Source: Bacteroidales bacterium UBA4230
GTDB taxonomy: Bacteria; Bacteroidota; Bacteroidia; Bacteroidales; UBA932
Length of the DNA stretch: 63,460 nucleotides
Direction of reading: 5' to 3'
Assembly (NCBI GenBank): GCA_002395605.1
Contig: DGXO01000034.1
Location: 1 to 63,460 of the forward strand
In this document: positions 7,270-40,209 of the stretch, piece after piece
Layout of the letters: each line of letters begins with the position of its first letter
Position numbering within the stretch: the first letter of the stretch is position 1
Notes under the pieces: generated by a model
Database searches by the model: none
What the model was told of the DNA's origin: nothing
The model's input: the letters and a program-made list of their open reading frames with translations, nothing else
Translations under genes and position numbers: made by a program

Positions 7270-7359
7270 TAAACGGCTGGCAATCTGCAATTTACGCAAA
7301 GTCCCGTATTACTTTTTACCCACGGCAAAATGCATAATACACTAATAATAAAGCACTTA
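7270..7359. repeat. 90-bp box-dyad-box element, copy E1
   Basis: Boxes TAAACGGCTGGCAATCTGCAATTTA (7270) and TAATACACTAATAATAAAGCACTTA (7335); centred dyad CCGT...ACGG (weakest core); contains the ATG of the next gene. Confidence 0.65.
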
Positions 7360-9540
7360 GCAAAAACGCTCATCTTGCTTCCTTTGGCGCTTGCCTGCGG
7401 GCCGAAGCCGGAAAAACAGGTATCAGAGCCTTCCGGCATACATTTTTCCGTAGACGAGACCACCGGTAACCTCACTTTCCTTGGTTTGGGCGCAGGCGGG
7501 CACAACTACGCCGGCAGCAGCGGACTGTGGAGGATGTACTACAACACCCCGGAGCAGAAGGAGATAGAGATTACTCCCCTTGACGGAACGCCGGAGGTAA
7601 GTGTGGCGGGAGACACTGTGCATATAGACTACTCAACACTTGCCGGAAAAGCATTTGAGCTGCATCTGACGCTATGGAAAGAGGAAGGGCAGCTGAGGTT
7701 TGGAGCAACTGTAAAGAACAATGAGCCCCACACGATAATCCGCGAACTCCAGTACCCGCTTGTTGGGAAACTGCAACTGCCGGAAGGATACAGGCTTCTC
7801 ACAACCCACACCGGAGGGCAGATTCATGAGAACCCCGTGTGGAAGATATCCAACGTTGATACAAGGGCCCTTTATATGACCCCCGCCCAGAAGTTCCGCC
7901 AGATGGACCTCCAGTATCCCCGTAACGCCGCCGCCAACTGCTTTGCGTTCATCGGGGATGAGGACGGCCTGTACTTCGGCTCCCACGACACCTCCCTCCA
8001 GCAAACCTGGCACGGGCTCCGCACTTATCCCGATGAAGGGACAATAGGCCATGTGACGGAAGACTTCAAGAACCTTGAAGCGGGCTTTTACCGCTACCCC
8101 AACGCAATGTGCGGCGATACTTGGAGCAATGATGCCAGCGTGGTGGTGCCGTACACCGGAGACTGGACCGAGACTTCCCGCATTTACCGCAAGTGGGCCG
8201 ATACCTGGTGGCACCACGCCCCCGTTCCAAAGTGGGTTCAGGACATGACCGGCTGGCAGAGGGTCATCTTCAAGCACCAGTACGGAGAAGTCCTGCGCAC
8301 ATATGAGGACCTTCCCGGCCGCATTGCCGCCGCCGGAGAGTCTGTGGGTTGCAACGCCGTCCTGGCCTTCGGCTGGTGGGATGAAGGCATGGACAACGGC
8401 TATCCCAACTATACCCTGAAAGACGAAGCCTCATGGAAAGAGGCGATTGCTGCATATAGGGCAGGCAGTGCCGTCCCTCCGCGTTGCTTCGCAACCAACC
8501 GGGGCCCCCGGAAATCTTTGATTTCTGGGGTGGCTCTGTCCGGGCAAATGCTCCGGGACAGCACTGCCTGCCCTAAAAACAGGTTGTTGCTATACTTCAA
8601 CGGCCGTTTGATAGATGTAGAAAGCAACTTCTACAAGAGCGGCGGAGGGTCACGCGTAGCCAACAAAGACAACACGGGCAGGGAGTTCACGGAGCACTAC
8701 AAGTTCACCGGAGAAGGAACCACGCTGGGGTATTACGACTCCAGGACGTTCGTGATAGCCAACATGAGCAAGCGGGAGTGGCGTGACCAGCTCCTGAAGT
8801 GGGCCGACAGGGCCATGGAGTACGGCGCCGACGCCGTGTTCTACGACCAGCTTGGCGTTGCGGAGGAGTTCCCGGACTGGGACCTTTCCCGCGAATACCC
8901 CGTCCAGGACATCTTTACGGGCCGTTACAAGGCCGAAGCACTCAAGGAAATCCGAGACCACATCAAGGCAAAGGATCCGGAGTTCGGCCTTGGCACAGAA
9001 TGGCTCAGTGACTGCACCAGCCAGTTCTGCGACTTTGTGCACATTGTGGAGTTCACGGCGCTTCCGGAGAGCTTCCCGGAATGGTTCCGCTACACCTTCC
9101 CGGAGGTTGTGTGGAGCGACCGCTGCGTGCGCGACGACAACGACGTTCCCCGCCGCGTGAACAACACCCTCCTCAAGGGCCTCAGGAACGACATTGAGGT
9201 GTTCCGCTGCCGCGGACTCATAGATGAAACGCCTGTGTACCAGGCACATCTTGCAAAGGTGAACGAAATCCGTCACGCCTTCCCGGAGCTACTCCTTGAA
9301 GGCCGATACACCGCCACTGACGGCTTCACCTGCTCAGAAAAAGCCCTCACCGCCCGCAGCTTCACCGCCGGAGACAGGATGGCCGTAGTTGTGACAAATA
9401 CAGGTGATAAAATGAAGATAGGAAAGATTACGGCGCCGGGGTATAAACTCACTGGCAGCCGCAGCATAGGAGGGAAGATTGAATCAAACACCATAACGCT
9501 TGACACCAATGAAATTGCAGTACTTGTTTACTCTCGCTAG
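7330..9540 (+). CDS. DUF6259-type putative glycoside hydrolase (lipoprotein) carrying an in-frame palindromic insertion
   Basis: Lipobox ALAC; FGWW...GMDNGYPNY, YFNGRLID, GADAVFYDQLG; 39-codon foreign-looking segment at 8457-8575. Confidence 0.7.
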   Translation: MHNTLIIKHLAKTLILLPLALACGPKPEKQVSEPSGIHFSVDETTGNLTFLGLGAGGHNYAGSSGLWRMYYNTPEQKEIEITPLDGTPEVSVAGDTVHIDYSTLAGKAFELHLTLWKEEGQLRFGATVKNNEPHTIIRELQYPLVGKLQLPEGYRLLTTHTGGQIHENPVWKISNVDTRALYMTPAQKFRQMDLQYPRNAAANCFAFIGDEDGLYFGSHDTSLQQTWHGLRTYPDEGTIGHVTEDFKNLEAGFYRYPNAMCGDTWSNDASVVVPYTGDWTETSRIYRKWADTWWHHAPVPKWVQDMTGWQRVIFKHQYGEVLRTYEDLPGRIAAAGESVGCNAVLAFGWWDEGMDNGYPNYTLKDEASWKEAIAAYRAGSAVPPRCFATNRGPRKSLISGVALSGQMLRDSTACPKNRLLLYFNGRLIDVESNFYKSGGGSRVANKDNTGREFTEHYKFTGEGTTLGYYDSRTFVIANMSKREWRDQLLKWADRAMEYGADAVFYDQLGVAEEFPDWDLSREYPVQDIFTGRYKAEALKEIRDHIKAKDPEFGLGTEWLSDCTSQFCDFVHIVEFTALPESFPEWFRYTFPEVVWSDRCVRDDNDVPRRVNNTLLKGLRNDIEVFRCRGLIDETPVYQAHLAKVNEIRHAFPELLLEGRYTATDGFTCSEKALTARSFTAGDRMAVVVTNTGDKMKIGKITAPGYKLTGSRSIGGKIESNTITLDTNEIAVLVYSR
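8457..8575. mobile_element. MITE/REPIN-like element inserted in frame
   Basis: 21-bp terminal inverted repeats TAGGGCAGGCAGTGCCGTCCC / GGGACAGCACTGCCTGCCCTA (1 mismatch), TA at both ends, internal hairpins GTTGC-TTC-GCAAC and CCCCGGAAATC-TTT-GATTTCTGGGG. Confidence 0.85.
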
Positions 9541-10840
9541 CATATTTGCGCTTCTTCTTTCCTGCAGCCCCAAAGCGCAGGACACTCCCCTTCTGGAGGC
9601 TCCTTCAGGGCTGACCGTTACGGAGATTACCACGGAATCGGCCACCCTCTCTTGGAAGGGGAATTCGGCCGAAGCCATTGGCTACTATGTGTTTGTGAAT
9701 TCAAATGTAAAGCCTCTGGAGGCCCTGCCCAAGGGAAGCGTGGCCTACACTTTTACCGGACTTACAGAGAGCACTGAATACAGGTTTGGCGTGCAGGCGT
9801 ACGGAAACGGCACGGCAATGAGCCCGGTTGCATGGACGGATCCCGTAAAAACCGCCGCTCCGGAGCCTGAGCCTGAACCGGAACCCGAGCCTGAACCGGA
9901 CCCCAATCCCATTGAGCCCGTCACCTTTGACTGGACGGAGGTAACCGGACTTGACATTCCGGAATCCATTAAAGTCTACAAGACCGAAAGCACCCTGAAC
10001 GGCCGTCCGCTGAAGGCGTGGTATGCCGTTGCCGACTGCACCGGGGACGTAAGGCTGAGGGTACTTTTCCCCGGCCTTGACGGCAAGAAAACAATTGACG
10101 ACCAGGCCCAGGCCGACGAAAAATGCCTTGTGCTTGTAAACGGAGGCATCTTCGGCAAACTTAACAACGGATTTGCCGTTTGCGACGGCGAGCAGACTCC
10201 CTGGGCGCGCGTGGAAGACGACAACTGGGACGTAGACCGCCAGTACTGGGGCCCGGACAGCAAGCTCCACACGGTGTCTCGCGGGCTTTTCGGCGTAGAT
10301 GAAGTCGGGAGACCTGGCGTCTTCTGGTCATATACCCCCAAACACGGTACCGTGTATGTGTACGACAAGCCCATTCCCACCGTTGCGGGCGGCCCCGTAC
10401 AAGCCGGCGGCACGGACACATTCCCCTGTGAAAGAGCCCAGTGGGAGCCATACAACGCCATCACCTGCGGCCCGGTGCTCCTTCAGGGCGGCAAGTGCCC
10501 CATCAACGACAAGAAGACTTCGGCCGGCTACTGGGAAACCAATTACGAGCTTTGGGCCGACGACATTTACGGCGTGGATGTCCTTGCCGACCGCACGGCG
10601 GTAGGATTCCTTGAGGACGGCCGCGTGATCCTTCTTGTGGCCGATGTCAGGATTGACTCCTCCAAGGGCGCCAACACCCTTGAAATGGCCGCCATCATGA
10701 AGGGCCTTGGATGCGTGGGCGCACTTAACCTTGACGGCGGCGGCTCCACGGGAATGTGGGCTAGGGGCGGCGGTCACCTGAACGACCTCACCGGCGGCAA
10801 CCGTGCGGTCCTTACCACCATAGGCTTTTTTGAAAAGTGA
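9509..10840 (+). CDS. FN3 + phosphodiester glycosidase (NAGPA/DUF2233) lipoprotein
   Basis: ATG at 9509, lipobox LLSC; FN3 domain; (PE)n linker; VNGGIF, RTAVG, ALNLDGGGST. Confidence 0.88.
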   Translation: MKLQYLFTLASIFALLLSCSPKAQDTPLLEAPSGLTVTEITTESATLSWKGNSAEAIGYYVFVNSNVKPLEALPKGSVAYTFTGLTESTEYRFGVQAYGNGTAMSPVAWTDPVKTAAPEPEPEPEPEPEPDPNPIEPVTFDWTEVTGLDIPESIKVYKTESTLNGRPLKAWYAVADCTGDVRLRVLFPGLDGKKTIDDQAQADEKCLVLVNGGIFGKLNNGFAVCDGEQTPWARVEDDNWDVDRQYWGPDSKLHTVSRGLFGVDEVGRPGVFWSYTPKHGTVYVYDKPIPTVAGGPVQAGGTDTFPCERAQWEPYNAITCGPVLLQGGKCPINDKKTSAGYWETNYELWADDIYGVDVLADRTAVGFLEDGRVILLVADVRIDSSKGANTLEMAAIMKGLGCVGALNLDGGGSTGMWARGGGHLNDLTGGNRAVLTTIGFFEK

Positions 10841-12303
10841 TTCTTGCGAGCCTCATACTGGCTGCCTTGATCGGCCTTGTTCCCGCCCCCGTGGAGTATT
10901 CCCCGGAAAGGAGCAGGACCTGCTTTAGGAAGGCCATAGAGCAACTTGAACCTTGGCAGAAGGAGGAGGCCTACAGGATTACAATCCGTGGCCAAAAGGT
11001 TAAGGTTGAAGCTCTTACAGAAGAGGGCAGGTTCCGTGCACAGACAACCCTGGAGCAGCTAAGGGCCCTTGGGGAACTCCCGGAGGGGACAATCCTTGAC
11101 TATCCGCGCCTTCGGCACAGGGGCCTCATGATAGACGAATCCAGGAGTTTCAAGGGCCTTGAGTTCCTGAAAAAGCAGATTGACGCCATGGCGCTCCTGA
11201 AACTCAATGTCCTGCACCTTCACCTTGACGACAGCGCCGGCTGGAGGATGGAGATTGACTCGTACCCGCTGCTGACTGAAAAAACGGCCTTCCGCGTGGG
11301 GTACACCTACCATGAGTGGGAGGCCGGGAAGTATAAGTTCACTTCGGCCGAAGACCCCGCCGGTTATGGCGGATTCTATTCAAAGGCGGAACTCCGGGAG
11401 CTGGTGGAATATGCCGCCAAGCGCTTCATAACCGTGATTCCTGAGATTGAGATGCCGGGCCATTCCATGGAAGTGGGATATGCCTACCCTGAGGTCCTTT
11501 GTACCCTTGAAGACGGAACGCTTTGCCGCGGGGCCTGGGACCTTTGCCCGGGTTCCGAAGCCACCTACAGGCTTCTGGAAAGCGTCCTTTCAGAGGTGAT
11601 GGAGGTATTCCCTTCGGAGTTCATCCACATTGGAGGAGACGAGGCCACAATGAAAACCTGGCCCGGCTGCCCCAAGTGCCGCGCGCTCATGGAGCGGGAA
11701 GGATACACCTCCGTTAAACAGCTCCAGGGACACCTTGTGCGCCGTATAGAGGCTTTTGTCCGCTCCCATGGCCGAAGGATAATCGGCTGGGACGAAATCC
11801 TGGAGACGGGCGTACCGGAGGGGGCCGTGGTGCAAAGCTGGAGGGGCGTTTCAGGAGGGCAGAAGGCATCGGCCCTGGGACACGACGTTGTGATGTCCCC
11901 AAACACCCACCTCTATCTTGATTACTACCAGGACCTTATACGGAAAGAGCCCAAGGCGGTTGGCGCGCTGACATCCCTCCGGTGGGTCTACGGGTATGAA
12001 CCGCTTGCCCCCGGGATGGCCCCGGAGCATCTTCTTGGAATCCAGGGGAACCTCTGGTGCGAACTTATCCCCACCCCGGAGCATGCCGAATACATGCTTT
12101 ATCCGCGGGCCTTTGCAATTGCCGAAACCGCCTGGAGCCCTTCTTCGGCCAAAGACTGGGAGAGCTTCTACCGCAGGACAAGGGCCCTCCTTGAAGTATT
12201 TCACCGGCGCGGGTACAAGAGTTTCGACCTTGACACGGAGAGCGACCTTTCACGCAGCGGATGCCGCACTTGGGAGGAATATGACGCTTATTTGAAGAAT
12301 TAA
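10837..12303 (+). CDS. GH20 beta-N-acetylhexosaminidase
   Basis: HRGLMIDESR, IPEIEMPGH, catalytic HIGGDE, YLDYYQ, GIQGNLW. Confidence 0.95.
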   Translation: MILASLILAALIGLVPAPVEYSPERSRTCFRKAIEQLEPWQKEEAYRITIRGQKVKVEALTEEGRFRAQTTLEQLRALGELPEGTILDYPRLRHRGLMIDESRSFKGLEFLKKQIDAMALLKLNVLHLHLDDSAGWRMEIDSYPLLTEKTAFRVGYTYHEWEAGKYKFTSAEDPAGYGGFYSKAELRELVEYAAKRFITVIPEIEMPGHSMEVGYAYPEVLCTLEDGTLCRGAWDLCPGSEATYRLLESVLSEVMEVFPSEFIHIGGDEATMKTWPGCPKCRALMEREGYTSVKQLQGHLVRRIEAFVRSHGRRIIGWDEILETGVPEGAVVQSWRGVSGGQKASALGHDVVMSPNTHLYLDYYQDLIRKEPKAVGALTSLRWVYGYEPLAPGMAPEHLLGIQGNLWCELIPTPEHAEYMLYPRAFAIAETAWSPSSAKDWESFYRRTRALLEVFHRRGYKSFDLDTESDLSRSGCRTWEEYDAYLKN

Positions 12304-12322
12304 TCTTATCTTTGCGGAAGAC

Positions 12323-13348
12323 ATGGAAATCAAGATAGACTGCAGCCTCAACCATTCCCTTTACAGGCAGATTGTAGAGGGTGTGGAACATGGTATCCAC
12401 GAAGGCTCCATCCCCGCCGGAGAACAACTTCCGTCCATGAATTTCCTTGCCTCAAAATACGGCATTTCCCGTGAAACCGTCAAAAAAGCCTATGGCATCC
12501 TGGTAGACAAAGGCCTCATTGCCCCAAAGCACGGCAAAGGCTTCTACGTGGCCGATATTTCCAAAAGCGGACGCCCTCAGGTGCTGGTTATCTTTGACAA
12601 GTTCTCCGTTTACAAACAGATTATTTTCAACGCCTTTTCCGGCACGCTGTCAGACAAGGCCGAAATCACCATAGTCAATCACAACCAGAGTCTGGAGCTC
12701 CTCACGTACTATCTGGACAACTATCTTGATGCCTTTGACTACTATGTGGTTACGCCGCACTTTCCACTGGACAAGGCCACCCAGGCTGGAGTTTCAAAGC
12801 AGCTTTCCCGCATTCCCAACCGTAAGCTCATAATGCTTGACCGCCTGCAGCCGGATTTCCCCGGAAACTTCGGCGCGGTGTATCAGGACTTCGAGAACGA
12901 CATCCGTGACGGTCTTTCCCAGGGCCTGTCCCCTACCGTACGCACCCGGAAACTCCGGGTGATAACGCTCCCGTCATCCCTATACGGCCATGGGATGCAT
13001 AGCGGTATAAAGCGCTTTTGCCAGGAGCACTCGATACCCGTGGAATTCATAGAATCGGCCCCCTCCGATATTCATCCCGGAGACACGTTCCTCCTCCTCA
13101 GCTCCCAGCTGGACGCAGGGCTGGTGGCCCTCACCCGCAAGATTCAAGAAAGCGGTCTGGAGATTGGCCGGGACGTCTTCATCATCTCCTACAACGAGTT
13201 CGACATGAACGAGATTGTCCTTGGCGGGCTCACCACAGTTTCGGCCGATTTCCACGAGATGGGAAGGCTGGCGGCGCAGATGATCCTGGACCGAAAACTC
13301 GTCAAGATTCACTGCCCGTTCAGGATGATGAGGCGACATACTTTCTGA
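12323..13348 (+). CDS. GntR-family regulator with C-terminal sugar-binding domain
   Basis: GEQLPSMNFLASKYGISRETVKKAY...HGKGFYV winged HTH; LacI-like tail IISYNE...LTTVSADFHEMG. Confidence 0.9.
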   Translation: MEIKIDCSLNHSLYRQIVEGVEHGIHEGSIPAGEQLPSMNFLASKYGISRETVKKAYGILVDKGLIAPKHGKGFYVADISKSGRPQVLVIFDKFSVYKQIIFNAFSGTLSDKAEITIVNHNQSLELLTYYLDNYLDAFDYYVVTPHFPLDKATQAGVSKQLSRIPNRKLIMLDRLQPDFPGNFGAVYQDFENDIRDGLSQGLSPTVRTRKLRVITLPSSLYGHGMHSGIKRFCQEHSIPVEFIESAPSDIHPGDTFLLLSSQLDAGLVALTRKIQESGLEIGRDVFIISYNEFDMNEIVLGGLTTVSADFHEMGRLAAQMILDRKLVKIHCPFRMMRRHTF

Positions 13349-13349
13349 T

Positions 13350-13386
13350 TTTGTATTGCATTACAAAGAAATAATTCTTATATTTG
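13350..13386 (+). promoter_or_regulatory. Promoter -7 box with upstream palindrome (candidate GntR operator)
   Basis: TATATTTG at 13379-13386; palindrome TTTGTA-TTGCAT-TACAAA at 13350-13367 over the expected -33 position. Confidence 0.5.
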
Positions 13387-13454
13387 CATTATAATACCAC
13401 AGTGCACCACACTTTAGAAACTAGTTTTAATTTCATAACCAATTCATTATTAAC

Positions 13455-16271: not shown

Positions 16272-16295
16272 TCCTTGAATAAATATTGAATCATT

Positions 16296-16326
16296 CAGGG
16301 CAGCCCCACGCGGGTTGCCCTGTTTG
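16296..16326 (+). terminator. Rho-independent terminator
   Basis: CAGGGCAGCCC-CACGC-GGGTTGCCCTG followed by TTTG, 25 bp after the stop codon. Confidence 0.7.
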
Positions 16327-16337
16327 TATCGGGCAGG

Positions 16338-16428
16338 TGGAAGTGAAAAGGCGCAAAAATGGGCAAAAATGCGGGAATCCAGTTGAGGTTGGAAGTGAAA
16401 TCCCGCAAAAATGGGCAAAAATGCGGGA
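16338..16428. repeat. Direct repeat, 52-bp period, with phased A-tracts
   Basis: TGGAAGTGAAA-nnn-CGCAAAAATGGGCAAAAATGCGGGA at 16338 and 16390. Confidence 0.85.
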
Positions 16429-16460
16429 TTTGAGTACGTAATTTTGTATCTTTGGGTAGG

Positions 16461-19247: not shown

Positions 19248-19258
19248 GCCCGTGGAGG

Positions 19259-19348
19259 CAACGCATTGACATTCAGCACATTACTCAAAAACGTCTGCCC
19301 GGTTTTGGGTAGACGTTTTAACATAACAATCACACAATCAATTACTTA
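19259..19348. repeat. 90-bp box-dyad-box element, copy E2 (core may also act as a bidirectional terminator)
   Basis: Boxes CAACGCATTGACATTCAGCACATTA (19259) and TAACAATCACACAATCAATTACTTA (19324); centred dyad AAAACGTCTGCCC / GGGTAGACGTTTT. Confidence 0.8.
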
Positions 19349-20099
19349 ATTCCACGGCCAAATCCGGGCGGTTGGTGGTGATAACGTCTACGCCAAGGTC
19401 CTTGAGGTACTTCATTTCCTCAGGGCTGTCTACGGTCCAGACATTGACCGTGAGGCCAAGGGCATGGGCGCGCTCCACCCAGTCCGCGTGCTTGTGGAAG
19501 GCCACCCAGTTGTAGTCTATGCCGTTAATGCCGTCTGCGTGAATTTGTTCCGGCTCCACCACACCTTCAAGATACTGGTTGCCGAAGCCGGGAAGATTTG
19601 CGGCTATCCACTTGCAAGCGTCGTAGCTGAAGGAGATGAACATCACGCGCTCCGGATCCAGAAGGCCGTGGGCCCTCAGTTGCCACACGCAGCGCCGGGT
19701 AAGTTCCAAAGTAGCCTCCACGGTGTCCTGCGGCTTTACCTCCAGCACCATCATACAGGCCGATTTTGCCCCCTGATGCAGGTATTCGTTGAGCGTGGGG
19801 ATGGTTTCTCCGTTTGGTAGACGGGCCCCAAGAAGCTGCCTGTAAGTGCTTGTGTGGATGGGAATTCCGGCAATGGAAGGGTCGTGGTTTACAACCACAA
19901 CGGAGTCTGCGGTAAGGTGAACGTCAAACTCGCTGCCCCAGAAACCGGCCTCCTGGGCTGCCTTCAGGGAGGCAATGGAATTCTGGGCATAACCGGCCTC
20001 CTGGCACTGCCAGTAACCGCGATGGGCACATACTTTCTGGGCTTTCACGGGCGCTGCCGCCAGCGCCAGAAGCGTAAAAAACAAAACAAGTTTTTTCAT
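19338..20099 (-). CDS. Glycerophosphodiester phosphodiesterase (GDPD), secreted
   Basis: Signal peptide; AHRG, QNSIAS, SEFDVHLTAD, VNVWTVD, VITTNRP. Confidence 0.92.
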   Translation of the reverse strand: MKKLVLFFTLLALAAAPVKAQKVCAHRGYWQCQEAGYAQNSIASLKAAQEAGFWGSEFDVHLTADSVVVVNHDPSIAGIPIHTSTYRQLLGARLPNGETIPTLNEYLHQGAKSACMMVLEVKPQDTVEATLELTRRCVWQLRAHGLLDPERVMFISFSYDACKWIAANLPGFGNQYLEGVVEPEQIHADGINGIDYNWVAFHKHADWVERAHALGLTVNVWTVDSPEEMKYLKDLGVDVITTNRPDLAVELSN

Positions 20100-20137
20100 A
20101 GCGTGAAGTTACTAATTTTTTTGTACCTTTGAAAACT

Positions 20138-24422: not shown

Positions 24423-24520
24423 TATCCCGCATCCCCCACTTCATTCCCCTCCGCATTTCTCCCCTATCGGCTTTTCTTCCCCCTCGGCCCGCTCTGGCGT
24501 TTTGCCGTGGCGGTGCGACG

Positions 24521-24610
24521 TAAAGCACTAGCAATCAACAACTTGCACGGTTCTTTGGGAAAAGCGGTAATCCCAAACAACCCAGCAAACACCTCACAAT
24601 CAACACTTTA
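24521..24610. repeat. 90-bp box-dyad-box element, copy E3 (left flank of the transposase unit)
   Basis: Boxes TAAAGCACTAGCAATCAACAACTTG (24521) and CAAACACCTCACAATCAACACTTTA (24586); centred dyad TTTGGGA-N10-TCCCAAA. Confidence 0.85.
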
Positions 24611-24675: not shown

Positions 24676-25218
24676 ATGACTTACTACAGCCAGCTTCTCC
24701 TTTATTACTTTCTCCATAGCGCAGGAACCATTCTGGAAGAACCAGAGCAGGAGTACTCTGGCCTTTCAGAGGAAACCGAGGCCACGGAACTGTCCGGCTT
24801 CGTGAAAGAGGCTTCGGCTGGCGGGCTGGTCCCGCCTCCGCCGCACGAAGTCATTCGCATTACGCGCGGGTACAGGATTTATTATGGAGGAAACGAACTC
24901 AAACTCAGGCCCATGTCCAAGGCTGTCATGCTCCTTTTCCTGCGGCATCCGGAAGGAATTGCCCTTAAGGACATCGGGGATCACCGCGAAGAACTCACGC
25001 GTCTTTACTCCGGTGTTGCACGCACGGACAACCCTGTCAGGATAGAGAAAAGCATCGGCCGAGTCCTTGATATCTTCTCAAATGAGCTTAATGTGAACCT
25101 TTCCAGGGTTAACGCCGCTCTTTCGGCTCTTGAAAATGAAGGCCGATACCACATGAAAGGCCGTGCCGGGGAGCCTAGGGCCCTTAAATTTTCAAGGGTA
25201 ATCGTCATTTGGGAATAG
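24676..25218 (+). CDS. Hypothetical protein with a probable winged-helix DNA-binding domain
   Basis: Upstream TACATTTG -7 box at 24638; ELKLRPMSKAVMLLFLRHPEGI...LNVNLSRVNAAL resembles OmpR-type wHTH. Confidence 0.55.
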   Translation: MTYYSQLLLYYFLHSAGTILEEPEQEYSGLSEETEATELSGFVKEASAGGLVPPPPHEVIRITRGYRIYYGGNELKLRPMSKAVMLLFLRHPEGIALKDIGDHREELTRLYSGVARTDNPVRIEKSIGRVLDIFSNELNVNLSRVNAALSALENEGRYHMKGRAGEPRALKFSRVIVIWE

Positions 25219-25250
25219 TCGTTTACCCGTACTCCTTTAAAACAGCAAAA

Positions 25251-25266
25251 TGTTTCACGTGAAACA
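25251..25266. other. parS: parS centromere-like site
   Basis: Perfect 16-bp palindrome TGTTTCACGTGAAACA, intergenic, about 1 kb from rsmG/rpmH. Confidence 0.88.
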
Positions 25267-25330
25267 ACGCTATTTGTTACGGGGTTATTGCATAACGGCC
25301 GCATAATGCATAATTTGGCGACAAAAAATA

Positions 25331-26251
25331 ATGCATATGAAACGTAGAGTCGCAGAGGGTGAAGTTCACCACATTTACCAGAAAACAAAAGGCGGAGTCG
25401 TTATCTTTTATTCGCTCAGGGACTACCTTGTATACTTTACCATTTTCTGTACCCTGGCAGAGAGAATGGATGTCACGGTGCTTGCTTTGTGCCCTATGCC
25501 GGACCACCTTCATAGCGCTTGCCGGTTCGCAAGTGCAGAGCAGATGGTAAGGTTTGTGCAGCAGTACACAAGGATTTTTGTAAAAGAGTGGAATCACTCC
25601 AGAAAGCGCAAAGGCTCCCTTGTACAGGAGCACTTTGGAAGTGCACCCAAAATTGGGAACAAAGCCGTACGTACCACCATTAATTACAACAACAATAATC
25701 CAGTAGAACGCAAGATAACGGCCCGGGCCGAAGATTATCGGTGGAATTTCCTCAAGTATTTTAATAATCGCCATCCTTTTTCCAAACCTCTTGATGAATC
25801 GCATTCATCTCATAAGCTTAGGAGTGTACTTCAAGAAGTGAGAGCAGTTTACAAGAATGAACAATGGTTGCGGTACTCTCAACTTGATCTCTGGATGAAA
25901 GGGCTATCATCCGGAGAAGTGCAACAACTGGCCGACTACATAATAACAACTTGGAATGTAATTGATTATGTAGGGGCTATCAGCTACTATGGTGAATACG
26001 CCGCAATGCTACGAAGCTTCAACGACAACACCGGCGGAGAATATGATATTAAAGAAGATAAGGACAACTATTCAGATGCCGTCTATAATGACTGCACGCA
26101 AATACTTATTCGTGAAGGATACATTTCCAGCGTACGGGAGATACCTTGTATGTTCCTAGACAGGAAAATGGAACTATACAAGTTGCTTCAGTCCAGAACA
26201 GCAGCAAAACCATCTCAAATTAAGAAATATCTGCATCTGAGTGGAATATAG
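25331..26251 (+). CDS. HUH Y1 transposase of the REP-associated (RAYT)/IS200-like type with a long C-terminal extension
   Basis: HHIY, CPMPDHLH (HUH motif), KGSLVQEHFGS, YNNNNPV (catalytic Tyr), EDYRW; visibly more AT-rich than its neighbours; no tnpB. Confidence 0.88.
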   Translation: MHMKRRVAEGEVHHIYQKTKGGVVIFYSLRDYLVYFTIFCTLAERMDVTVLALCPMPDHLHSACRFASAEQMVRFVQQYTRIFVKEWNHSRKRKGSLVQEHFGSAPKIGNKAVRTTINYNNNNPVERKITARAEDYRWNFLKYFNNRHPFSKPLDESHSSHKLRSVLQEVRAVYKNEQWLRYSQLDLWMKGLSSGEVQQLADYIITTWNVIDYVGAISYYGEYAAMLRSFNDNTGGEYDIKEDKDNYSDAVYNDCTQILIREGYISSVREIPCMFLDRKMELYKLLQSRTAAKPSQIKKYLHLSGI

Positions 26252-26261: not shown

Positions 26262-26351
26262 TATATAATTGATACTCAGGCGTTTGCAGAATCATTTGGG
26301 ATTACCCGTTTTCCCAAACAAATGTATAAACGCCTGATAATAAACCGATTA
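26262..26351. repeat. 90-bp box-dyad-box element, copy E4 (right flank, inverted relative to E3)
   Basis: Boxes TATATAATTGATACTCAGGCGTTTG (26262) and TAAACGCCTGATAATAAACCGATTA (26327); centred dyad TTTGGGA-N10-TCCCAAA. Confidence 0.85.
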
Positions 26352-26478
26352 GCTGGCACCAACACGGCAAAACACAAAGGGGGCAACGTGCAATAATGTG
26401 CTAGTTAGCTTGCACCACCAGGGGAGAAAAATAGGGGGCGCAATGTGCAGGGCAAGCGCAGGGCACAAGCCCGGGGCA

Positions 26479-27822: not shown

Positions 27823-27844
27823 AGTTTTCAGCGTGTTTAATAGA

Positions 27845-27874
27845 CAAATATAACAATTTTTTTCAGTATATTTG
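27845..27874. promoter_or_regulatory. Divergent pair of -7 promoter boxes
   Basis: TATATTTG on the minus strand (27845-27852) and on the plus strand (27867-27874) between the MFS and GH2 genes. Confidence 0.65.
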
Positions 27875-27878
27875 TGTT

Positions 27879-33515: not shown

Positions 33516-33534
33516 ATAACAGGTTTTAATATAG

Positions 33535-36315
33535 TCAAAGCTTTATTTCCACATCCTTAGTTCCATCGTACTCCACGGAGGCCACGCCTTCGGCATCCGG
33601 ATCCCAAGCAAAAGGATGGGACTCCGAGCACACCGCTATCCTGAACCTGCGGTCACGGACCATTCCGGGGAAACCGCCATCGCGCTTCCTGATGGTGAGT
33701 TTCCTTTCCCCATCATTCCAGTCAAAGGCAATCTTGGAGCACTCTCCCCTCTCATAGCCGTAGGTAAGGCCGTCGTCCTCATAGAGGGTGAAGGAGGCAT
33801 CGGCCCCGGCGTAAACCACAATGAGAAGGTTGTCCGGGCGTTTTTCGCCGGTCCACTCAATCTCCGGGCCCACGGGGATTATGCTTCCGCCACGCACATA
33901 CAGCGGCATGCGGCTGTAGGGGGCGTCTACGGTAATTCGGCCGCCCACAGATGCCCGATCGGGGTCGGGAATGACGGTGTTTCCGTCATTCCCGGCTTGA
34001 CCGGGAATCTTACCGGTATAGAAGTCGTACCAAGTTCCCTCCGGGAAGTATACGCTGCGGCTGCGGGCCTTGTACTCATACACCGGGCAGGGCATGAGTG
34101 CCGGGCCGAAGAACCACTGGTCACTTAGGTATGAAACTTCCGGATCATGAGGGTAATCCATGGCAAGGCCCCTCATCATGGTGTAGCCGTCATAGTTCAC
34201 GGCACCGGCGAGGGAATAAATGTAAGGCATGAGCCTGTAACGAAGGCGCATGTAGTAAAGGATGCTCTCATAGGCCTCGGAGCCTTCCGGGGCGATATTC
34301 CAGAGTTCTCTACGGGGCCACTGGCCGTGAGCGCGGAACAGCGGTACAAAGGCGCCAAACTGGTGCCAACGGGTCTGCAGTTCCTGCCATTCGGCCTCGG
34401 CGGCCTTGGAGTAGAACTTGCTCATTACGGAGAATCCGCCAATGTCCATGCCCCAGAACGGAAGGCCGCTCATGGAGTAGCCAAGGCCCGCGGCCATCTG
34501 CATCCTCATGTCGGTCCAGGAGGTGCCGATATCTCCGCTCCAAGTGGCCGTAGAATAGCGCTGAAGGCCGGAGAAGCCGTTACGGGTAAGGAGGAACACG
34601 CGTTTGTCGGGGTCTACGCCGCGCTGGCCTTCATAGATGGCCTGGGCGTTTACAAGGGCATAGGCGTTGAAATATTCGGTGGCAGAGCCAAGGGCGTTTG
34701 GCGTAAGCAGCCACTTCATGTAGTCCAGCGGCAGGCAGTCCCTGAGGTTGGGCTCGGAGGCGTCCATCCACCAGGCATCGATCTTTCGGCCGAAACGGGT
34801 GTACAGGGACTCGTCCATCTGCCTCCAGAACATCTTTCGGCCTCCATCTGCGTAGGCGTCATAGAAAGACTGAAGATGGCCAAGCCAGTCACGAAGGCTG
34901 TCGGCTTCCGGATGGGTATATGCATAGCCAGCCTCTTTAAGCTCTTTGTAATGGTCTGTATTGGTGTAGAACTTGGGCCAGACGGAAATCATGAAACGGC
35001 CGTGCATTGCGTGTACGGAGTCAAGCATGGCCTCGGGGGCAGGATAGCGGGTGCTGTCAAACTCATGACTTCCCCACTGGTCGGCTTCCCAGTACTGCCA
35101 GTCCTGGACAATATTGTCTACGGGAATGTGGCGGCGACGGAGCTCCCTCAGAGCCTCCACAAGCTCATCCTGAGTGGAATAGCGCTCACGGCTCTGCCAG
35201 AATCCAAGGGCCCACTGGGGAATCACGGAGGCCTTTCCGGTGAGGCTGCGGTAAGCCTTTATGACATCGTCCATGGAATCCCCTGCCATAACGTAGTAGT
35301 CGGCAAAAGGTTCGGCCTCGCTCCAGAAGGTAAGGCGGTCTTCAACGGCACCTGCCGGAAGGGCCCTGAGGCCTATGTAGGACACGTCTCCGTCCGGTTC
35401 CCACTCAATCTTGACGGGCGTGGGGACGCCCTTTTCCAGATGGACTGTGAACTTGTAGCTGTTTGGATTCCAGGCCGGACGCCAGCGGCGGCTCATGACT
35501 TCCTCTCCGCCTATTTCCGTCCTTTGGAAGCCGGCATAATACTGTATGAAGTGGTAGTCTCCGCTCTCCGGAGCAGTGATTGTGCCTTCATAGGTTACGG
35601 CAGCTCCGTTAAGGGGAACATCGGGGAGATTCTTTATAGCCCACTCGTTCTCATAGTAGAGGCTGTCTTCCTTTTGGACAAGTTCGGCTCCGTCCTTAGT
35701 GCGGTAAGTACCTTTAAGGTCCAGGCCGAACACCTCTCCAAGCTGCCTGTAGGGCTGGTCCGTGCCCCATCGGCTTAGGGAATAGGCGTCAAAGAGAATG
35801 CCGTATCCTTTGTTGGAGACCACCATGGGAACGCTCACCTTGGTGTTGTACTGGTAAAGTACTTCCGGAAGACCGCGGTGGTCCAGTTCTCCGGCCTGGT
35901 GCTGTCCAAGGCCGTAGTAGGATTCTCCGCGGGCGCTTTCATAACTTACCGTAGTGCTCCAAAGCCCGCTTTCGGGGGCCTTGGCAAAGGCGGTACGGCC
36001 ACCTGCGAGGATTGGCGTTCCGTCGGCCTTGAAAAAGCTTATCGTGCTGTCTTTGAGAGACACTTTGAGGGCCGAAGTTGTGAGGGTGCTACCGTCAAAC
36101 TTGTAGTCCGTGCAGCCGTCCTGCGGAAGCACCACAAGGCTTTCCCTGTCCTTGAACTCCCCTTCGGGAACGGCGCTTACGCGGATAATTTCAGGGCTCA
36201 CCACTTCAAGACGGAGCTTGTAGCCGTCAAATGGCACTGTGAAACTGTTCTTCTTGCCGCAGGAGATGACGGCAAGAAGAACCAGGGCAAGGCAGGCGTT
36301 TTTCTTAACTTTCAT
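33535..36315 (-). CDS. GH31 alpha-xylosidase-like enzyme with a PA14 insert
   Basis: GFWQSRERY, IVQDWQYW, WWMDASEP, WSGDI, FRAHG; PA14-like segment WRPAWNPNSYKF. Confidence 0.9.
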   Translation of the reverse strand: MKVKKNACLALVLLAVISCGKKNSFTVPFDGYKLRLEVVSPEIIRVSAVPEGEFKDRESLVVLPQDGCTDYKFDGSTLTTSALKVSLKDSTISFFKADGTPILAGGRTAFAKAPESGLWSTTVSYESARGESYYGLGQHQAGELDHRGLPEVLYQYNTKVSVPMVVSNKGYGILFDAYSLSRWGTDQPYRQLGEVFGLDLKGTYRTKDGAELVQKEDSLYYENEWAIKNLPDVPLNGAAVTYEGTITAPESGDYHFIQYYAGFQRTEIGGEEVMSRRWRPAWNPNSYKFTVHLEKGVPTPVKIEWEPDGDVSYIGLRALPAGAVEDRLTFWSEAEPFADYYVMAGDSMDDVIKAYRSLTGKASVIPQWALGFWQSRERYSTQDELVEALRELRRRHIPVDNIVQDWQYWEADQWGSHEFDSTRYPAPEAMLDSVHAMHGRFMISVWPKFYTNTDHYKELKEAGYAYTHPEADSLRDWLGHLQSFYDAYADGGRKMFWRQMDESLYTRFGRKIDAWWMDASEPNLRDCLPLDYMKWLLTPNALGSATEYFNAYALVNAQAIYEGQRGVDPDKRVFLLTRNGFSGLQRYSTATWSGDIGTSWTDMRMQMAAGLGYSMSGLPFWGMDIGGFSVMSKFYSKAAEAEWQELQTRWHQFGAFVPLFRAHGQWPRRELWNIAPEGSEAYESILYYMRLRYRLMPYIYSLAGAVNYDGYTMMRGLAMDYPHDPEVSYLSDQWFFGPALMPCPVYEYKARSRSVYFPEGTWYDFYTGKIPGQAGNDGNTVIPDPDRASVGGRITVDAPYSRMPLYVRGGSIIPVGPEIEWTGEKRPDNLLIVVYAGADASFTLYEDDGLTYGYERGECSKIAFDWNDGERKLTIRKRDGGFPGMVRDRRFRIAVCSESHPFAWDPDAEGVASVEYDGTKDVEIKL
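33949..34010. repeat. Inverted pair of CGTC-tagged REP palindromes inside the GH31 coding sequence
   Basis: AGATGCCCGATCGGGGTCGGGAATGACG ... CGTCATTCCCGGCTTGACCGGGAATCT, translated KIPGQAGNDGNTVIPDPDRAS. Confidence 0.88.
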
Positions 36316-36317
36316 AA

Positions 36318-37772
36318 TCAATATTCCCAGTCATCTGAACGGAATGGCGGAACGGGGATGCCGCTGCTCTTCGCAAGGTTTGCGCCCATCCAGTTACGGA
36401 AGCCGTAGCGCACGGCAACGGGCTTTGCGACCTCCGGGCAGCGCACTATTATGGTCTCCCCGTCCCAGTCTATTTCGGCCTTGGCAAGGTGGAATTCACG
36501 GTCTTCTCCGGCAAGTTCAAAGCCCACCACATCACGGGAAGAAATGGAACCGAGGTTGCTCCAGACATTGGTAAGGCGTACCTTCACGGTGCCGTCTTCC
36601 TCTACGTTCCACTCTTTGAGGCGAGCCGGTTCAATGGAAATGCCGGTAGGGATGCCGTACACGTTCTGAAGGGCGGTAAGTTCCATCATGTCGGCAACCT
36701 CCTTTTTTTGTGAAGGATGCACTGTAACCTTGTTGCCAAGGGTTTCGGTGCACACATACCATGCGTTTGATGTCATTGAGGCCATCCTCATCTGGGCCTC
36801 AACAAAGTGGGGACGCCAGCGGCCGTAAGCATCGCCGTGATCATAGGGCGCAAGAAGGACGTAGATGAAAGGCATGTCGCCGCGGCCCCAGGAGTCTCTC
36901 CAGAGCTGAAGCATGGATGCCTGAAGTTTGTCGTAGCAGCCCGGCTGACCCATGTTGGAGCATCCCTGATACCACAGGAAGCCCTTTGCGGCATAACCCA
37001 CAATGGGAAGTACACGGCCGTTCCAGATAAGTTCCGGAGTCTCCGGCCAGCGGTCTGGCTGTTCCTTGACGGAGTAGAGCTCGTCAAGCTCCTTCTGGGT
37101 AAGTCCTGCACGGTTAATGGCTTCACGCGTCATCCAGGGCTCTATCCGGCTTCCGCCCCAGGCATTTACTATGATACCTACCGGAATACCAAGGTTATTT
37201 GACAGCCTTTTTGCAAAGAAATATCCCACGGCCGAAGTACGTGACACCACGTCTCCGGTAGAGTAAGTCCACTTTGCATCCACATCCTTTTGCGGCTCCG
37301 TGCACTTTGGAGCCTTGATATCGAACACGCGGATCTGTTTTGCGGTTTCGGCAGCCTCCAGGATAGCTTCTGTAGCGCCTTCAACTTCCTGAAAACCAAA
37401 GCCGCCAATGGGCATCTCCATGTTGGACTGGCCGGAGCAAATCCAGACCTCGCCAAGGGAGACGTCACTTACGGCAAGCTTTTCTTTACCGCTTTTTACG
37501 GTAATGGTATAGCCGCAGCCTGCTTCCCCTGTTGTCACATTCACTCGCCAGGAGCCGTCATGCGCCACCTTGGTCTTGAAGGTTTTGCCGTTCCAGGAGG
37601 TTTTAACGGTTACTGTTTTGCCGGCTTCTCCCCAGCCCCACACAGGAGTGGTGGTCTCACGCTGCAAAACGGCGTGATCAGTGAAAAGATGGGACAGCTG
37701 CAGAGTCTGTGCATTCAACGCCGCGCTCAGGAAGAGGAGCGCCGCCACGCAGCGTGGACGTAAATTACTCAT
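36318..37772 (-). CDS. Sialate O-acetylesterase-family (SGNH) acetylesterase
   Basis: GEVWICSGQSNM, WGGSRIEPW, LWYQG, VHP; start at 37772 gives a signal peptide. Confidence 0.88.
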   Translation of the reverse strand: MSNLRPRCVAALLFLSAALNAQTLQLSHLFTDHAVLQRETTTPVWGWGEAGKTVTVKTSWNGKTFKTKVAHDGSWRVNVTTGEAGCGYTITVKSGKEKLAVSDVSLGEVWICSGQSNMEMPIGGFGFQEVEGATEAILEAAETAKQIRVFDIKAPKCTEPQKDVDAKWTYSTGDVVSRTSAVGYFFAKRLSNNLGIPVGIIVNAWGGSRIEPWMTREAINRAGLTQKELDELYSVKEQPDRWPETPELIWNGRVLPIVGYAAKGFLWYQGCSNMGQPGCYDKLQASMLQLWRDSWGRGDMPFIYVLLAPYDHGDAYGRWRPHFVEAQMRMASMTSNAWYVCTETLGNKVTVHPSQKKEVADMMELTALQNVYGIPTGISIEPARLKEWNVEEDGTVKVRLTNVWSNLGSISSRDVVGFELAGEDREFHLAKAEIDWDGETIIVRCPEVAKPVAVRYGFRNWMGANLAKSSGIPVPPFRSDDWEY

Positions 37773-37850
37773 TGTTAATTCTTTATGCATTTTAGGGTGC
37801 CGAAAAACAAGCACCCTCTTTTAATTAACTCACTTATATTCAATTACTTG
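37761..37850. repeat. 90-bp box-dyad-box element, copy E5
   Basis: Boxes TAAATTACTCATTGTTAATTCTTTA (37761) and TAACTCACTTATATTCAATTACTTG (37826); centred dyad AGGGTGC-N10-GCACCCT. Confidence 0.8.
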
Positions 37851-39010
37851 TCTCCACGGCCTTCATTGGCGTCAATGAGCCGGTTGATGGCCTCAACGGA
37901 AAGACCGGTGCGGAAACCGTCCGCGGGAGTGTTCATGCAGTAGTCCACAAGGCGGTCTACAGTTGATGTTGCCACGTGCATGCGGGTGTCTGAGGAAGCG
38001 TAGTAGATGAACACACGGCCGTCGGGGTCGGCAATCCAGCCGTTACTGAACAGCACGTTCATAACGTCTCCGATGTACTCCCAGCCTTCAGGTACCATGA
38101 AGAAGCCGCCGGGCTCTGCAATAACGCGTGAAGGGTCGTCAAGGGCGGTCATGTACATGTAAAGGACATAGCGCAGGCCGCTTGCGCAGCCGCGTACGCC
38201 GTGGGCAAGGTGCAGCCAGCCCTTAGGGGTCTTGATGGGATGCGGGCCTTCTCCGTTTTTCACTTCCTTTATGGTGTGGTAGTGACGGAGGTTGATTATC
38301 TTCTCCTCCTTTATCACGGCGCCTTCCATGGTGTCTACAAGGGCCCAGCCGATGCCGCCGCCGCTGCCGGCGTCAATGAAGCCGTCCTGGGGGCGGGTGT
38401 AGAGGGCATACTTGCCGTTCACGAATTCCGGATGAAGCACCACGTTGCGCTGCTGGCTGGTTGACTGGATATCAGGAAGCCTTTCCCAGTTCACAAGGTC
38501 CTTGGTGCGGGCTACACCGGCCGCTGCTGTTGCGGCAGAGAGGTCCCCTTCGGCCGAATGGTCCTTGCGCTCCACGCAGAAGATGCCGTAAATCCAGCCG
38601 TCTTCATGGGCGGTAAGACGCATGTCATATACGTTGGTGGCGGGTTCTCCCCACTCAGGCATGGTTATGGGGCGGGGCCAGAACTTGAAGTTGTCAACTC
38701 CGTTGGGGCTTTCGGCCACAGCGAAGAAACTCTTGCGGTCATTGCCTTCCACGCGAACTACAAGGACGTACTTCCCGTTCCACTTTATGGCGCCGGAATT
38801 CAGCGTTGCGTGCACGCCGATGCGCTCCATAAGGTACGGATTACGCACAGGGTCAAGGTCATAGCGCCACTCAAGGGGTGCGTGATCGGCCGTGATTATG
38901 GGATTTTCCCAGCGCTCGTAGACGCCGTTTCCTTCAATGGGGGAATTTTTCTTTTCAATCAGTGCCCGATGGTTGTTCCTAAGCCAATCAAGCCTCTTTT
39001 CATAATTCAT
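37844..39010 (-). CDS. GH130 4-O-beta-D-mannosyl-D-glucose phosphorylase
   Basis: RVEGNDRKSFFA, NVYDMRL, QQRNVVLHPE, EVKNGEG, GDVMNVLF. Confidence 0.94.
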   Translation of the reverse strand: MNYEKRLDWLRNNHRALIEKKNSPIEGNGVYERWENPIITADHAPLEWRYDLDPVRNPYLMERIGVHATLNSGAIKWNGKYVLVVRVEGNDRKSFFAVAESPNGVDNFKFWPRPITMPEWGEPATNVYDMRLTAHEDGWIYGIFCVERKDHSAEGDLSAATAAAGVARTKDLVNWERLPDIQSTSQQRNVVLHPEFVNGKYALYTRPQDGFIDAGSGGGIGWALVDTMEGAVIKEEKIINLRHYHTIKEVKNGEGPHPIKTPKGWLHLAHGVRGCASGLRYVLYMYMTALDDPSRVIAEPGGFFMVPEGWEYIGDVMNVLFSNGWIADPDGRVFIYYASSDTRMHVATSTVDRLVDYCMNTPADGFRTGLSVEAINRLIDANEGRGDK

Positions 39011-39022
39011 ATTTAGGTTATA

Positions 39023-40126
39023 TTAGTCAAGAAAAAGTATGTTATCAAGTTCACTGAAGGCCTTCATGTCGGCCTCATACTCAAAGCCCTTCCACGCGGC
39101 ATAGAAATGCTCCGGTTTGTCGTGGGCATTGCGCCAGGTGAGGAGATAGCTGATGGGGTACTCCCTCACGGCAGGCTCCAGGATCTCTGTCCACCAGGTG
39201 GGGTACTTGATGCCTTCATAGCCGGTTTCGGAGAGGCACATGAGCTTGTTGTGCTCATAAGAAAGGGCCGTAAGGAATGTAAGTATGCGGCGGAGTTCGC
39301 CCTTGAAACGGGCGCTGGCATCGGCCACGGTGCCATTTCCCACATATTCATAGGAATCCACGCCAAGGATATCCACAAACTCGTCTCCGGGATAGCGGCT
39401 CATGTATTCCTCCGGCTTTATGTCTCCGTTGGGGGAATAGCACCAGAGGATGTTTGTAAGGCCGCGGTCTTTGGTAAGGTACAGCCAGGTGTGGCGGTAA
39501 AGCTCCTGGTACTCCTGAGCGGAGCAAAGCTTGCCTCCCCACCAGAACCAGCTGCCTATATTCTCATGCCAGGGGCGGAAAACGACGGGGACATCCGGGC
39601 CGATGGATTCCAGGAAATCGGCCACACGGGACAGCCAGGTGCGGAATTCACGCTCCTTTTCCCCTCCCTTCAGGATGGATTTCACCACCTGGTCGGAGCT
39701 CACATCCCAGGCGTCGCCGCCGGTAAGGGGATTGCGCGGATGCCATGAGAAAGTGACTATGCCGCCGCGCTCCACCTGTTTTTGAGCCGCACGGCGCATA
39801 AGGTCGAAGGGCACACCGTCAAGGTTCTCGTCGGCCCCCAGCTCAATGCCGCCAAGGTCACAGCCAAGGATAACGGGATACTTTCCGGTAACATCCTTGA
39901 CATCCGAGCGCTCCAGGGGATCATTCTCCGCGTCCGTTACCAGCCAGTTGTGGCCGTAGAAAAGGTCGTCCTGGTGGCCGTAGGCAATCTTGCCTTCTTC
40001 GGCATAGGTGAAAAGCCTGTGCACAAGCTCATCTTTTGGCGTTTCCATAGGCTTTTTGTCACGGGGACCGCAGCCAACGCACATGGCCACCGCAAGAAGG
40101 GAGAGGTAAGCGTTTTTCCTAATCAT
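39023..40126 (-). CDS. GH26 beta-mannanase
   Basis: YGHQDD, FSWH, FRPWHE, LSETG, TWRN. Confidence 0.94.
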   Translation of the reverse strand: MIRKNAYLSLLAVAMCVGCGPRDKKPMETPKDELVHRLFTYAEEGKIAYGHQDDLFYGHNWLVTDAENDPLERSDVKDVTGKYPVILGCDLGGIELGADENLDGVPFDLMRRAAQKQVERGGIVTFSWHPRNPLTGGDAWDVSSDQVVKSILKGGEKEREFRTWLSRVADFLESIGPDVPVVFRPWHENIGSWFWWGGKLCSAQEYQELYRHTWLYLTKDRGLTNILWCYSPNGDIKPEEYMSRYPGDEFVDILGVDSYEYVGNGTVADASARFKGELRRILTFLTALSYEHNKLMCLSETGYEGIKYPTWWTEILEPAVREYPISYLLTWRNAHDKPEHFYAAWKGFEYEADMKAFSELDNILFLD

Positions 40127-40209
40127 TTTATTATCAATAACTTACGTATTTTACTCCTATCCTTTTTGCCTGGAGTAAATGTTGTATTTAACTATAAATC
40201 AATTAATTA
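40120..40209. repeat. 90-bp box-dyad-box element, copy E6
   Basis: Boxes TAATCATTTTATTATCAATAACTTA (40120) and TATTTAACTATAAATCAATTAATTA (40185); centred dyad TTTACTCC / GGAGTAAA. Confidence 0.8.

Follow-up and report, generated by a model that had tools for sequence, protein, structure and literature searches.

Two-box repeats of fixed geometry bracket and co-vary with RAYT/TIRYT-type HUH-Y1 transposase genes in a Bacteroidales genome

We analyzed a 63,460-nucleotide stretch of DNA, referred to below as the window (contig DGXO01000034.1, positions 1 to 63,460, forward strand), from the genome of Bacteroidales bacterium UBA4230 (GCA_002395605.1; 2.07 Mb, 87 contigs, 79% complete). The window carries six copies of a repeat in which two 25-bp boxes enclose a central dyad at a fixed distance. 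A clade of RAYT/TIRYT-type HUH-Y1 transposase genes, restricted to the genus, is bracketed by these repeats and varies together with them. The enzymes likely use the repeats as substrates, which they would spread, convert and invert, and the boxes are likely bound by an IHF-like host protein that bends DNA. The elements are real, mobile and linked to transposase genes: we observe linkage, co-variation, repeated inversion, change of family in place, and gain and loss at orthologous sites. That each element is the repeat cognate to a RAYT enzyme is very probable. Named relatives are uncultured rumen Bacteroidales metagenome-assembled genomes, and the public runs containing matching DNA are animal gut metagenomes.

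An initial annotation had placed six units of 25, 40 and 25 bp at 7270, 19259, 24521, 26262, 37761 and 40120, and they are present there with the cores it described. Its box consensus (YAA-N5-TGA-N3-TCA-N5-TTR) is matched exactly by only one of the 12 boxes, although all 12 lie within two mismatches of it. Its 65-bp distance between box starts was borne out across the genome. A position weight matrix trained solely on the 12 boxes of the six window copies and scanned over the 87 contigs returned 107 pairs at exactly 65 bp, 101 of them outside the training set, against 0-6 pairs at each other spacing from 30 to 109 bp; 65-bp pairs were absent from every one of 10 local (50-bp) shufflings of the whole genome. 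The dyad is indeed centred to the base, with a mean complementarity of 0.90 at offset 0 versus 0.26-0.33 at other offsets within -3..+3. Complementarity across the midpoint at element positions 34-40 is 0.83-0.98, where 0.31-0.50 is expected, and 102 of 107 spacers fold at z < -2.

The unit is longer, and its core less free, than first described. A family-specific inverted 7-bp motif sits directly outside each box, so that the unit measures about 106 bp rather than 90 bp, in the order outer motif, box, core dyad, box, outer motif; families D and E carry an additional extension on one side, and whole units range from 105 to 125 bp. Seven core families can be told apart (A, 29 copies; D, 21; B, 17; C, 14; E, 10; F, 10; G, 6), and every one has an outer motif of its own. 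Since cores are not free, a repeat finder would detect each family genome-wide, contrary to the suggestion that similarity-based finders would miss them. A search by core arms alone recovered a constant arm-to-arm distance in families A (29/29), C (12/12), D (15/15), E (9/9) and B (13/14), and in family F nine pairs at constant distance plus three chance-like pairs at other distances. Within a family, identity at the free box positions reaches only 32-41%, and just 7 of the 107 copies have a neighbour that is at least 90% identical. From old, diverged copies without a single loop indel we infer that the geometry spans the whole unit, which would then resemble a duplex protein-DNA assembly more than a free hairpin. 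A search of the whole window against Rfam, which the initial annotation had proposed as a check for a described repeat, gave no match at the gathering threshold. The features of the window are as follows.

7261..7368, no strand: element, a G/F hybrid with left outer motif and core arm of G and right part of F
19251..19356, no strand: element of family C between convergent genes; contains the stop codon of the 20099-19338 gene
24455..24470, no strand: left cassette edge, formed by an outer-end remnant of an E element; same sequence as in strain locus L123
24499..24620, no strand: D element at the left end of the cassette that holds RAYT, with an extension (24499-24507), an outer motif (24511-24515) and two boxes (24521-24545, 24586-24610)
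24676..25218, forward strand: 180-aa host gene captured in the cassette; no Pfam or NCBIfam match
25331..26251, forward strand: RAYT/TIRYT-type HUH-Y1 transposase, 306 aa, with H59-H61, Y119 and E242; family-D cognate
25571..25630, forward strand: codons 81-100, the segment separating D-type from E-type alleles; likely core-reading helix
26253..26373, no strand: D element at the right end of the cassette that holds RAYT, with two boxes (26262-26286, 26327-26351) and an extension (26365-26373)
26392..26438, no strand: right cassette edge, formed by what remains of an E element: half of a box, the outer motif and the extension
37753..37858, no strand: element of family B; gives a stop codon to the 39010-37844 gene and an in-frame ATG (37772) to the next gene
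40111..40218, no strand: element of family F; the ATG of the 40126-39023 gene lies in its left box

The open reading frame (ORF) at 25331-26251 encodes a Y1 HUH protein, matching PF01797 at the cut-off and NF047646 below it. All four members of its clade in the genome are each bracketed by one element family: the window gene by D, and its three paralogues, at 37% identity, by pairs of F, B and A. Homologues occur in 19 of 36 congeners and in 0 of 24 other families. In a survey of 30 homologue loci, two of them from the source genome, 19 have at least two elements and seven have one, and bracketing elements are found at 8/8 of the closer homologues. Spacing at these loci is mostly 64-68 bp and family-specific, and core and outer motif differ from one paralogue to the next. 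The two cores of one cassette match each other with a mean score of 18.1, versus 5.5 between cassettes, and a core's own partner is its best match in 17 of 19 cases. The initial proposal that an HUH nuclease reads the central dyad is supported by this linkage to RAYT genes and by the paralogue-specific cores. At one locus (L010/L073; G010 C18), three tandem elements with a 134-bp period follow the RAYT gene, which is a BIME-like amplification.

The enzyme is intact: H59, H61 and Y119 are invariant in 31/31 sequences, and for the two pairs that allowed an estimate of dS, the ratio of nonsynonymous to synonymous substitution rates (dN/dS) is about 0.07. A structure model (predicted local distance difference test score, pLDDT, 91.7) has E. 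coli TnpA-REP (4ER8) as its closest fold (Foldseek E 2e-4); a VIA comparison with 4ER8 gives Z 15.0 and a root-mean-square deviation of 3.0 over 162 aligned residues, with a next-best score of 9.3. In this model the conserved E242 would overlie the metal-binding E161 of TnpA-REP, the aligned range ending with residue 246 on 165. The C-terminal 60 residues have no assigned fold: the helical tail modelled at 251-300, which was modelled only within the whole protein, has no clear match, and no Pfam match to a C-terminal helix-turn-helix (HTH) domain (Bac_DnaA_C, HTH_23, HTH_28) was found at E 0.001.

Comparison of the rpmH-GPH locus across 20 congener regions and 20 metagenome loci ties presence of the elements to that of the gene. 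One or more elements accompany the RAYT gene in every fetched stretch that has it, and stretches lacking the gene carry no element; in these the 180-aa gene follows rpmH. The 180-aa protein itself (24676-25218) is conserved beside rpmH across the genus. Among 32 partly redundant loci scored for cassette state, 11 are forward, 8 inverted and 13 without RAYT. The inverted label needs six changes on the GPH tree (465 nt, 28 rows; four loci lack GPH), so that inversion has recurred, with the caveat that this tree is weak, being built from a short marker in a recombining group. Both orientations occur within the same species: locus L123 (flanks 97.6% identical) and contigs of runs X8 and X13 carry the inverted cassette, while X6, L121 and L122 are collinear with the window. 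L123 also carries E elements in place of the window's D elements. Its cassette DNA is 92-100% identical to that of the window from about 24800 to 25570 (about codon 80), and 57-85% identical thereafter. Since the window retains E remnants at both cassette edges (24455-24470 and 26392-26438), a D cassette has replaced an E cassette. No tRNA target lies beside the cassette in the window, where the neighbour is rpmH, and no clean element-skipping joint was seen among the read joints listed (reads aligned over 20 kb).

The exchange of D for E points to the part of the protein that may choose the core. Seven of 12 D/E-diagnostic residues lie at positions 81-100 (six D and four E alleles, whose rows are related and not independent), and D alleles are split on the tree instead of forming one group. 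In the model, residues 81-100 fall in helix 69-90 and the following loop. The published account of TnpA-REP, which likewise has H59/H61, places its hairpin contacts at R78-R97, with alphaC in the minor groove (PMC3479197), and specificity of the alphaC region for the core is quite probable here. Orthologous RAYT genes with different repeat classes have been described as an 'orthoswitch' (PMC3686654); the D/E allele change fits this pattern and places it within the protein.

Solo copies have also come and gone. All four solo elements of the window have empty or converted orthologous sites in sister species (up to four compared). The 19259 site is empty in G384, holds an element with 53-bp spacing in G317 and has the element in G380; the G317 orthologue (L110/L114) has boxes 53 bp apart around a 28-bp perfect palindrome. 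The 37761 site is empty in G380 and has a C core instead of B in G317, with unchanged outer motifs. The 40120 site is empty in G384, and the empty allele there uses a different N-terminus. The 7270 site shows three types in three species, the window copy being the G/F hybrid. By the ORF calls of this analysis, twelve of 62 genes pointing away from an element have their first ATG in or beside it; for the ORF at 7330, this ATG lies in the right box of the 7261..7368 element. At 7330, 37772 and 40126 the element gives the first ATG and N-terminal residues of signal-peptide-like leaders.

The boxes behave as sequence motifs and not as stems, because complementarity inside a box and between boxes does not exceed the level given by the consensus alone, with no covariation; hairpins at the boxes, or one long stem, are thereby ruled out. 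This lack of covariation accords with the earlier view of the boxes as protein sites and, together with the genome-wide family, with that of a dispersed nucleoprotein site. The refined box is YAA-N4-YTGAT-W-ATCAR-N4-TTR. The two-fold axis of the IHF-DNA complex falls at the central W. The box amounts to the IHF consensus, given as TAAnnnnTTGATW / WATCAAnnnnTTR in PMC10380432, on both strands with the central W in common. Among 428 half-boxes, 368 lie within two mismatches of WATCARNNNNTTR, the IHF consensus of that source (75 exact, 149 with one mismatch, 144 with two, 60 with three or four). A single dimer binding both boxes had been proposed; one host dimer per box is preferred, because each box is two-fold symmetric in itself and occurs singly in other families.

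A perfect symmetric box is found in 23 of 120 other genomes of the order (0 for the reversed control), mostly as single intergenic sites, many of them in promoter regions. These genomes belong to families without a RAYT-profile match at E 1e-25; against 350 genomes at that threshold the profile gave a single partial match, within the same family. Boxes are enriched at dnaA, where 16 of 28 loci have them (23 boxes versus 2.2 for permuted matrices, maximum 9); 17 of 21 matches lie 54-386 bp upstream of the gene, and 14 of 27 loci have an upstream box. At recA, 1 of 28 loci has a box. Because boxes occur in families without a RAYT-profile match and are enriched at dnaA, we read them as host-factor sites, and it is rather likely that they are IHF-like binding sites, as predicted from the motif. 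The sole HU/IHF-family gene found in the assembly (G000 C81; L039:594-869) encodes a protein with an IHF-beta-like LRGFGSF. The Arg of IHF-beta takes part in reading TTR. At the arm tip, this protein has Ile where HU and IHF have Pro (RNI for RNP). In Bacteroides, the IHF/HU-family protein BHFa is reported to assist CTnDOT integration (PMC6606824). The box upstream of dnaA (L195-L224, L160) is a candidate host-factor site at the origin or the dnaA promoter. Perfect boxes number 8-38 in four genomes of other families (G458, G467, G520, G507), and several of these boxes are identical copies lying at the ends of contigs, which suggests further box-bearing repeat or insertion sequence families.

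We propose the following mechanism. In RAYT, helix 69-90 with the loop after it would recognise the stem of the core, a part played by alphaC in E. coli TnpA-REP. The REP 'foot', displaced about 35 bp from the stem, would correspond to the outer motif, which reads GTGG in families B and C and at about half of the D/E ends. A homodimeric IHF/HU-family protein may bend each symmetric box, bringing foot and core together. The site would operate in duplex or cruciform geometry, which would explain why every family keeps its loop and spacer lengths constant. DNA would then be moved, converted or inverted, either through nicking and strand transfer or through homologous repair primed by a nick. Copies would persist at gene ends, where some may serve as terminators or donate start or stop codons. 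Duplex chemistry by RAYT is doubtful. Unlikely as it stands is the wider proposal that an HUH-Y1 enzyme has shifted from single-strand transposition to a host-factor-assembled, intasome-like duplex or cruciform reaction, in which two IHF-type bends would set a displaced guide motif on the core dyad, the enzyme would invert its cassette and overwrite elements of other families, and a swappable 20-residue segment would reprogram the choice of core.

Several observations weigh against the reading of the elements as RAYT substrates with IHF-like boxes. Characterised Y1 enzymes act on single-stranded hairpins, which is awkward for duplex host-factor sites. GT(A/G)G is found at the hairpin foot in 0 of 214 strands (first 12 nt of the spacer). 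Outside the boxes it occurs in B (33/34), C (28/28), D (20/42) and E (10/20), and is essentially lacking in the outer motif of A (1/58), F (0/20) and G (0/12). No cognate transposase gene for families C, E and G is present in the assembly, which is 79% complete; elements went undetected at 4 of 30 homologue loci, and of the eight more distant Y1 genes in this genome, seven lack a two-box element. A near-identical burst of copies is absent (median nearest-neighbour identity 0.65-0.73), so that spread must have been slow or old. Empty sites, which differ by 15-20%, show a few codons replaced and not a clean insertion; for this reason the cut site is not readable, nor is any target duplication, the relatives being too distant. 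Ordinary homologous recombination could by itself invert DNA lying between inverted repeats of 105-120 bp. The HU/IHF protein of the assembly scores closer to HU than to IHF, and boxes are weakly enriched at integrase (Arm-DNA-bind_5) loci (8/28 loci, 9 boxes versus a control maximum of 7). A helical-phase argument from the spacings of 53, 63-68 and 84-85 bp is only suggestive, as 66-68 fit loosely, and was not used.

Three other explanations deserve consideration. The transposase link may hold while the boxes are bound by the C-terminal helical domain of RAYT or by an unrelated Bacteroidales regulator. The unassigned fold of the last 60 residues leaves room for this, as do the HTH-like tails described for long TnpA-Y1 proteins of subclass 2.1 (PMC6006769), the overall HU-like character of the local HU/IHF protein and the many boxes in promoter regions. 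We nevertheless find it improbable, as the boxes are common to Y1 paralogues from 37% identity down to another clade and to the 23 genomes from families with no RAYT-profile match, both halves of a box conform to the IHF consensus, and the region upstream of dnaA shows a clustering of boxes. Alternatively, the units may be att-like sites of a tyrosine recombinase, with RAYT as a passenger and XerC/D or an integrase inverting the cassette. Phage attP has a core-IHF-arm layout. The units resemble it in layout and in fixed duplex geometry, and inversions between inverted sites and the weak enrichment at integrase loci would fit; however, only three PF00589 genes are present in the assembly against seven core families, and none is tied to a family. 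Moreover, cores track RAYT paralogues and even RAYT alleles, elements disappear from the locus when the RAYT gene is absent, and central loop sequences differ between paired sites, all of which makes this explanation very improbable.

Finally, the units may be mainly host-selected RNA signals, bidirectional terminators or mRNA stabilisers derived from old transposon ends on which the enzyme no longer acts. Their position at gene ends speaks for such a role: with the ORF calls of this analysis, convergent gene pairs account for 33 of 82 two-sided element sites versus 200 of 1560 in the background, and among 125 gene ends that face an element, about 54 have their stop codon 8-18 bp short of the box and 25 have it within the box. 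A U-tract follows the core in 28/28 strands of C and 23/34 of B, but in 0/42 of D and 0/20 of F. A terminator, furthermore, requires neither boxes, outer motifs nor a fixed loop length, and purifying selection acts on the enzymes, whose alleles change in step with the cores inside a single species. We thus regard this explanation as very unlikely, and retain RAYT-cognate repeats with IHF-like boxes as the preferred reading.

Among known systems, we place the element with REPtron/TIRtron repeats, as one of new architecture, and not with attC. As in REPtrons (PMC2817692, PMC3333891, PMC3479197, PMC3686654), to the extent that these sources describe them, a single-copy HUH-Y1 gene under purifying selection is flanked by two inverted cognate repeats dispersed over the genome; the likeness extends to about 100 extragenic copies, one repeat class per paralogue, the orthoswitch, a fold closest to 4ER8 and specificity in the alphaC region, and the window RAYT has the HUH motif, the catalytic Tyr and the TnpA-REP fold. 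REPtron enzymes are described as making guide-directed cleavages (PMC8266576), in which the guide selects a dinucleotide in the single-stranded repeat. A REP hairpin of 20-40 nt has 5' GT(A/G)G at its foot, and the present elements do not; their GTGG-like motif lies 35 bp off on either side, beyond a 25-bp box. The unit is 105-125 bp with a fixed length, the protein has 305 aa with a large insertion and a tail, and the cassette inverts repeatedly and carries host genes. TIRtrons/TIRYT (PMC3733652), equivalent to TnpA-Y1 subclass 2.1 (PMC6006769), likewise combine, as described, a long Y1 protein with long, non-REP inverted repeats that are partly self-complementary and dispersed as a family. 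Here, too, the Y1 gene is flanked by non-REP inverted repeats, and the extended D/E ends point outward on both sides; in contrast, the family consensuses contain no GGGGWSAS motif. The TIRtron descriptions consulted in these two papers contain no box-core-box layout, IHF-type sites or Bacteroidales examples, and the survey reports no REP-like repeats near genes of subclass 2.1/2.3 (PMC6006769). The motifs DHLH/NHFH, F[QE] for WQ and YxxNNP and the length of 305 are only compatible with subclass 2.1.

The BIME-1/RIB elements of E. coli also unite a REP-type repeat and an IHF site at 3' gene ends (PMC3333891, PMC2817692). As described, BIME-1 has one asymmetric IHF site in a linker between two inverted REP hairpins, whereas the present element has a single hairpin between two symmetric sites whose spacing is invariant; the match of the half-boxes to WATCARNNNNTTR makes these sites predicted IHF-type ones. 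'Double foot' REPs of subclass 2.4, and the atypical repeats of subclass 2.6 from Bacteroidetes, the same phylum (PMC6006769), have GTGG...CCAC at both ends, as in B and C. By their description, the proteins have 179-194 aa and a WQ motif, in contrast to 305 aa without WQ here, where the feet are separated from the stem by boxes. Integron attC sites share a central palindrome whose sequence varies across families. Their length and loop vary freely, and their flanks pair with each other. The present units differ in their fixed length, unpaired boxes, absence of an integrase or cassette array, and dispersed, RAYT-linked copies; the attC analogy of the initial annotation does not hold, as cores are few, conserved in sequence and matched to transposase paralogues, with no integrase link seen. 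We found no description of this box-core-box element in the literature searched, though figures or supplements of PMC6006769 and PMC3733652 could hold examples.

Related arrangements are present elsewhere in the genome, which has 12 or so Y1 genes. Among more distant Y1 genes, 1 of 8 is flanked by a two-box element with 84-85-bp spacing. This element has its own core dyad (G000 C83:62609-63833) and recurs at C29:34160, C82:48961 and C83:61084; one pair flanks a Y1 gene of another clade (C83:62863-63699). At least seven more Y1 genes of about 305 aa exist (G000 C83:20410, C59:1649, C76:500, C31:10975, C22:19154, C3:10208), and those examined have different short palindromic repeats in their flanks, some as tandem arrays. 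The B-type cassette (G000 C71:15485-17655) encloses a second gene downstream of RAYT, the start of which resembles ssb, so that capture of a neighbouring host gene is not unique to the window. In the window, positions 1-21000 and 26479-53700 form two apparent polysaccharide-use clusters, judged by appearance and a few family matches, with a SusC/D-like pair with glycosidases and mannan-type genes; all six elements lie in or beside them.

This system bears both on how domesticated RAYT enzymes spread repeats and on why hosts keep them. It offers seven repeat families and several enzymes in one genome, and natural D/E allele pairs, distinct at a short segment, in one species; cassette inversion and in-place conversion provide an assayable readout. 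Cognate repeats are supplied for long-tailed Y1 proteins of a type where the survey found none. From the boxes comes a candidate consensus of an IHF-like Bacteroidales host factor with sequence specificity, and this consensus also marks the region upstream of dnaA. Lastly, in an abundant rumen group, the elements alter where genes of polysaccharide-use loci start and end.

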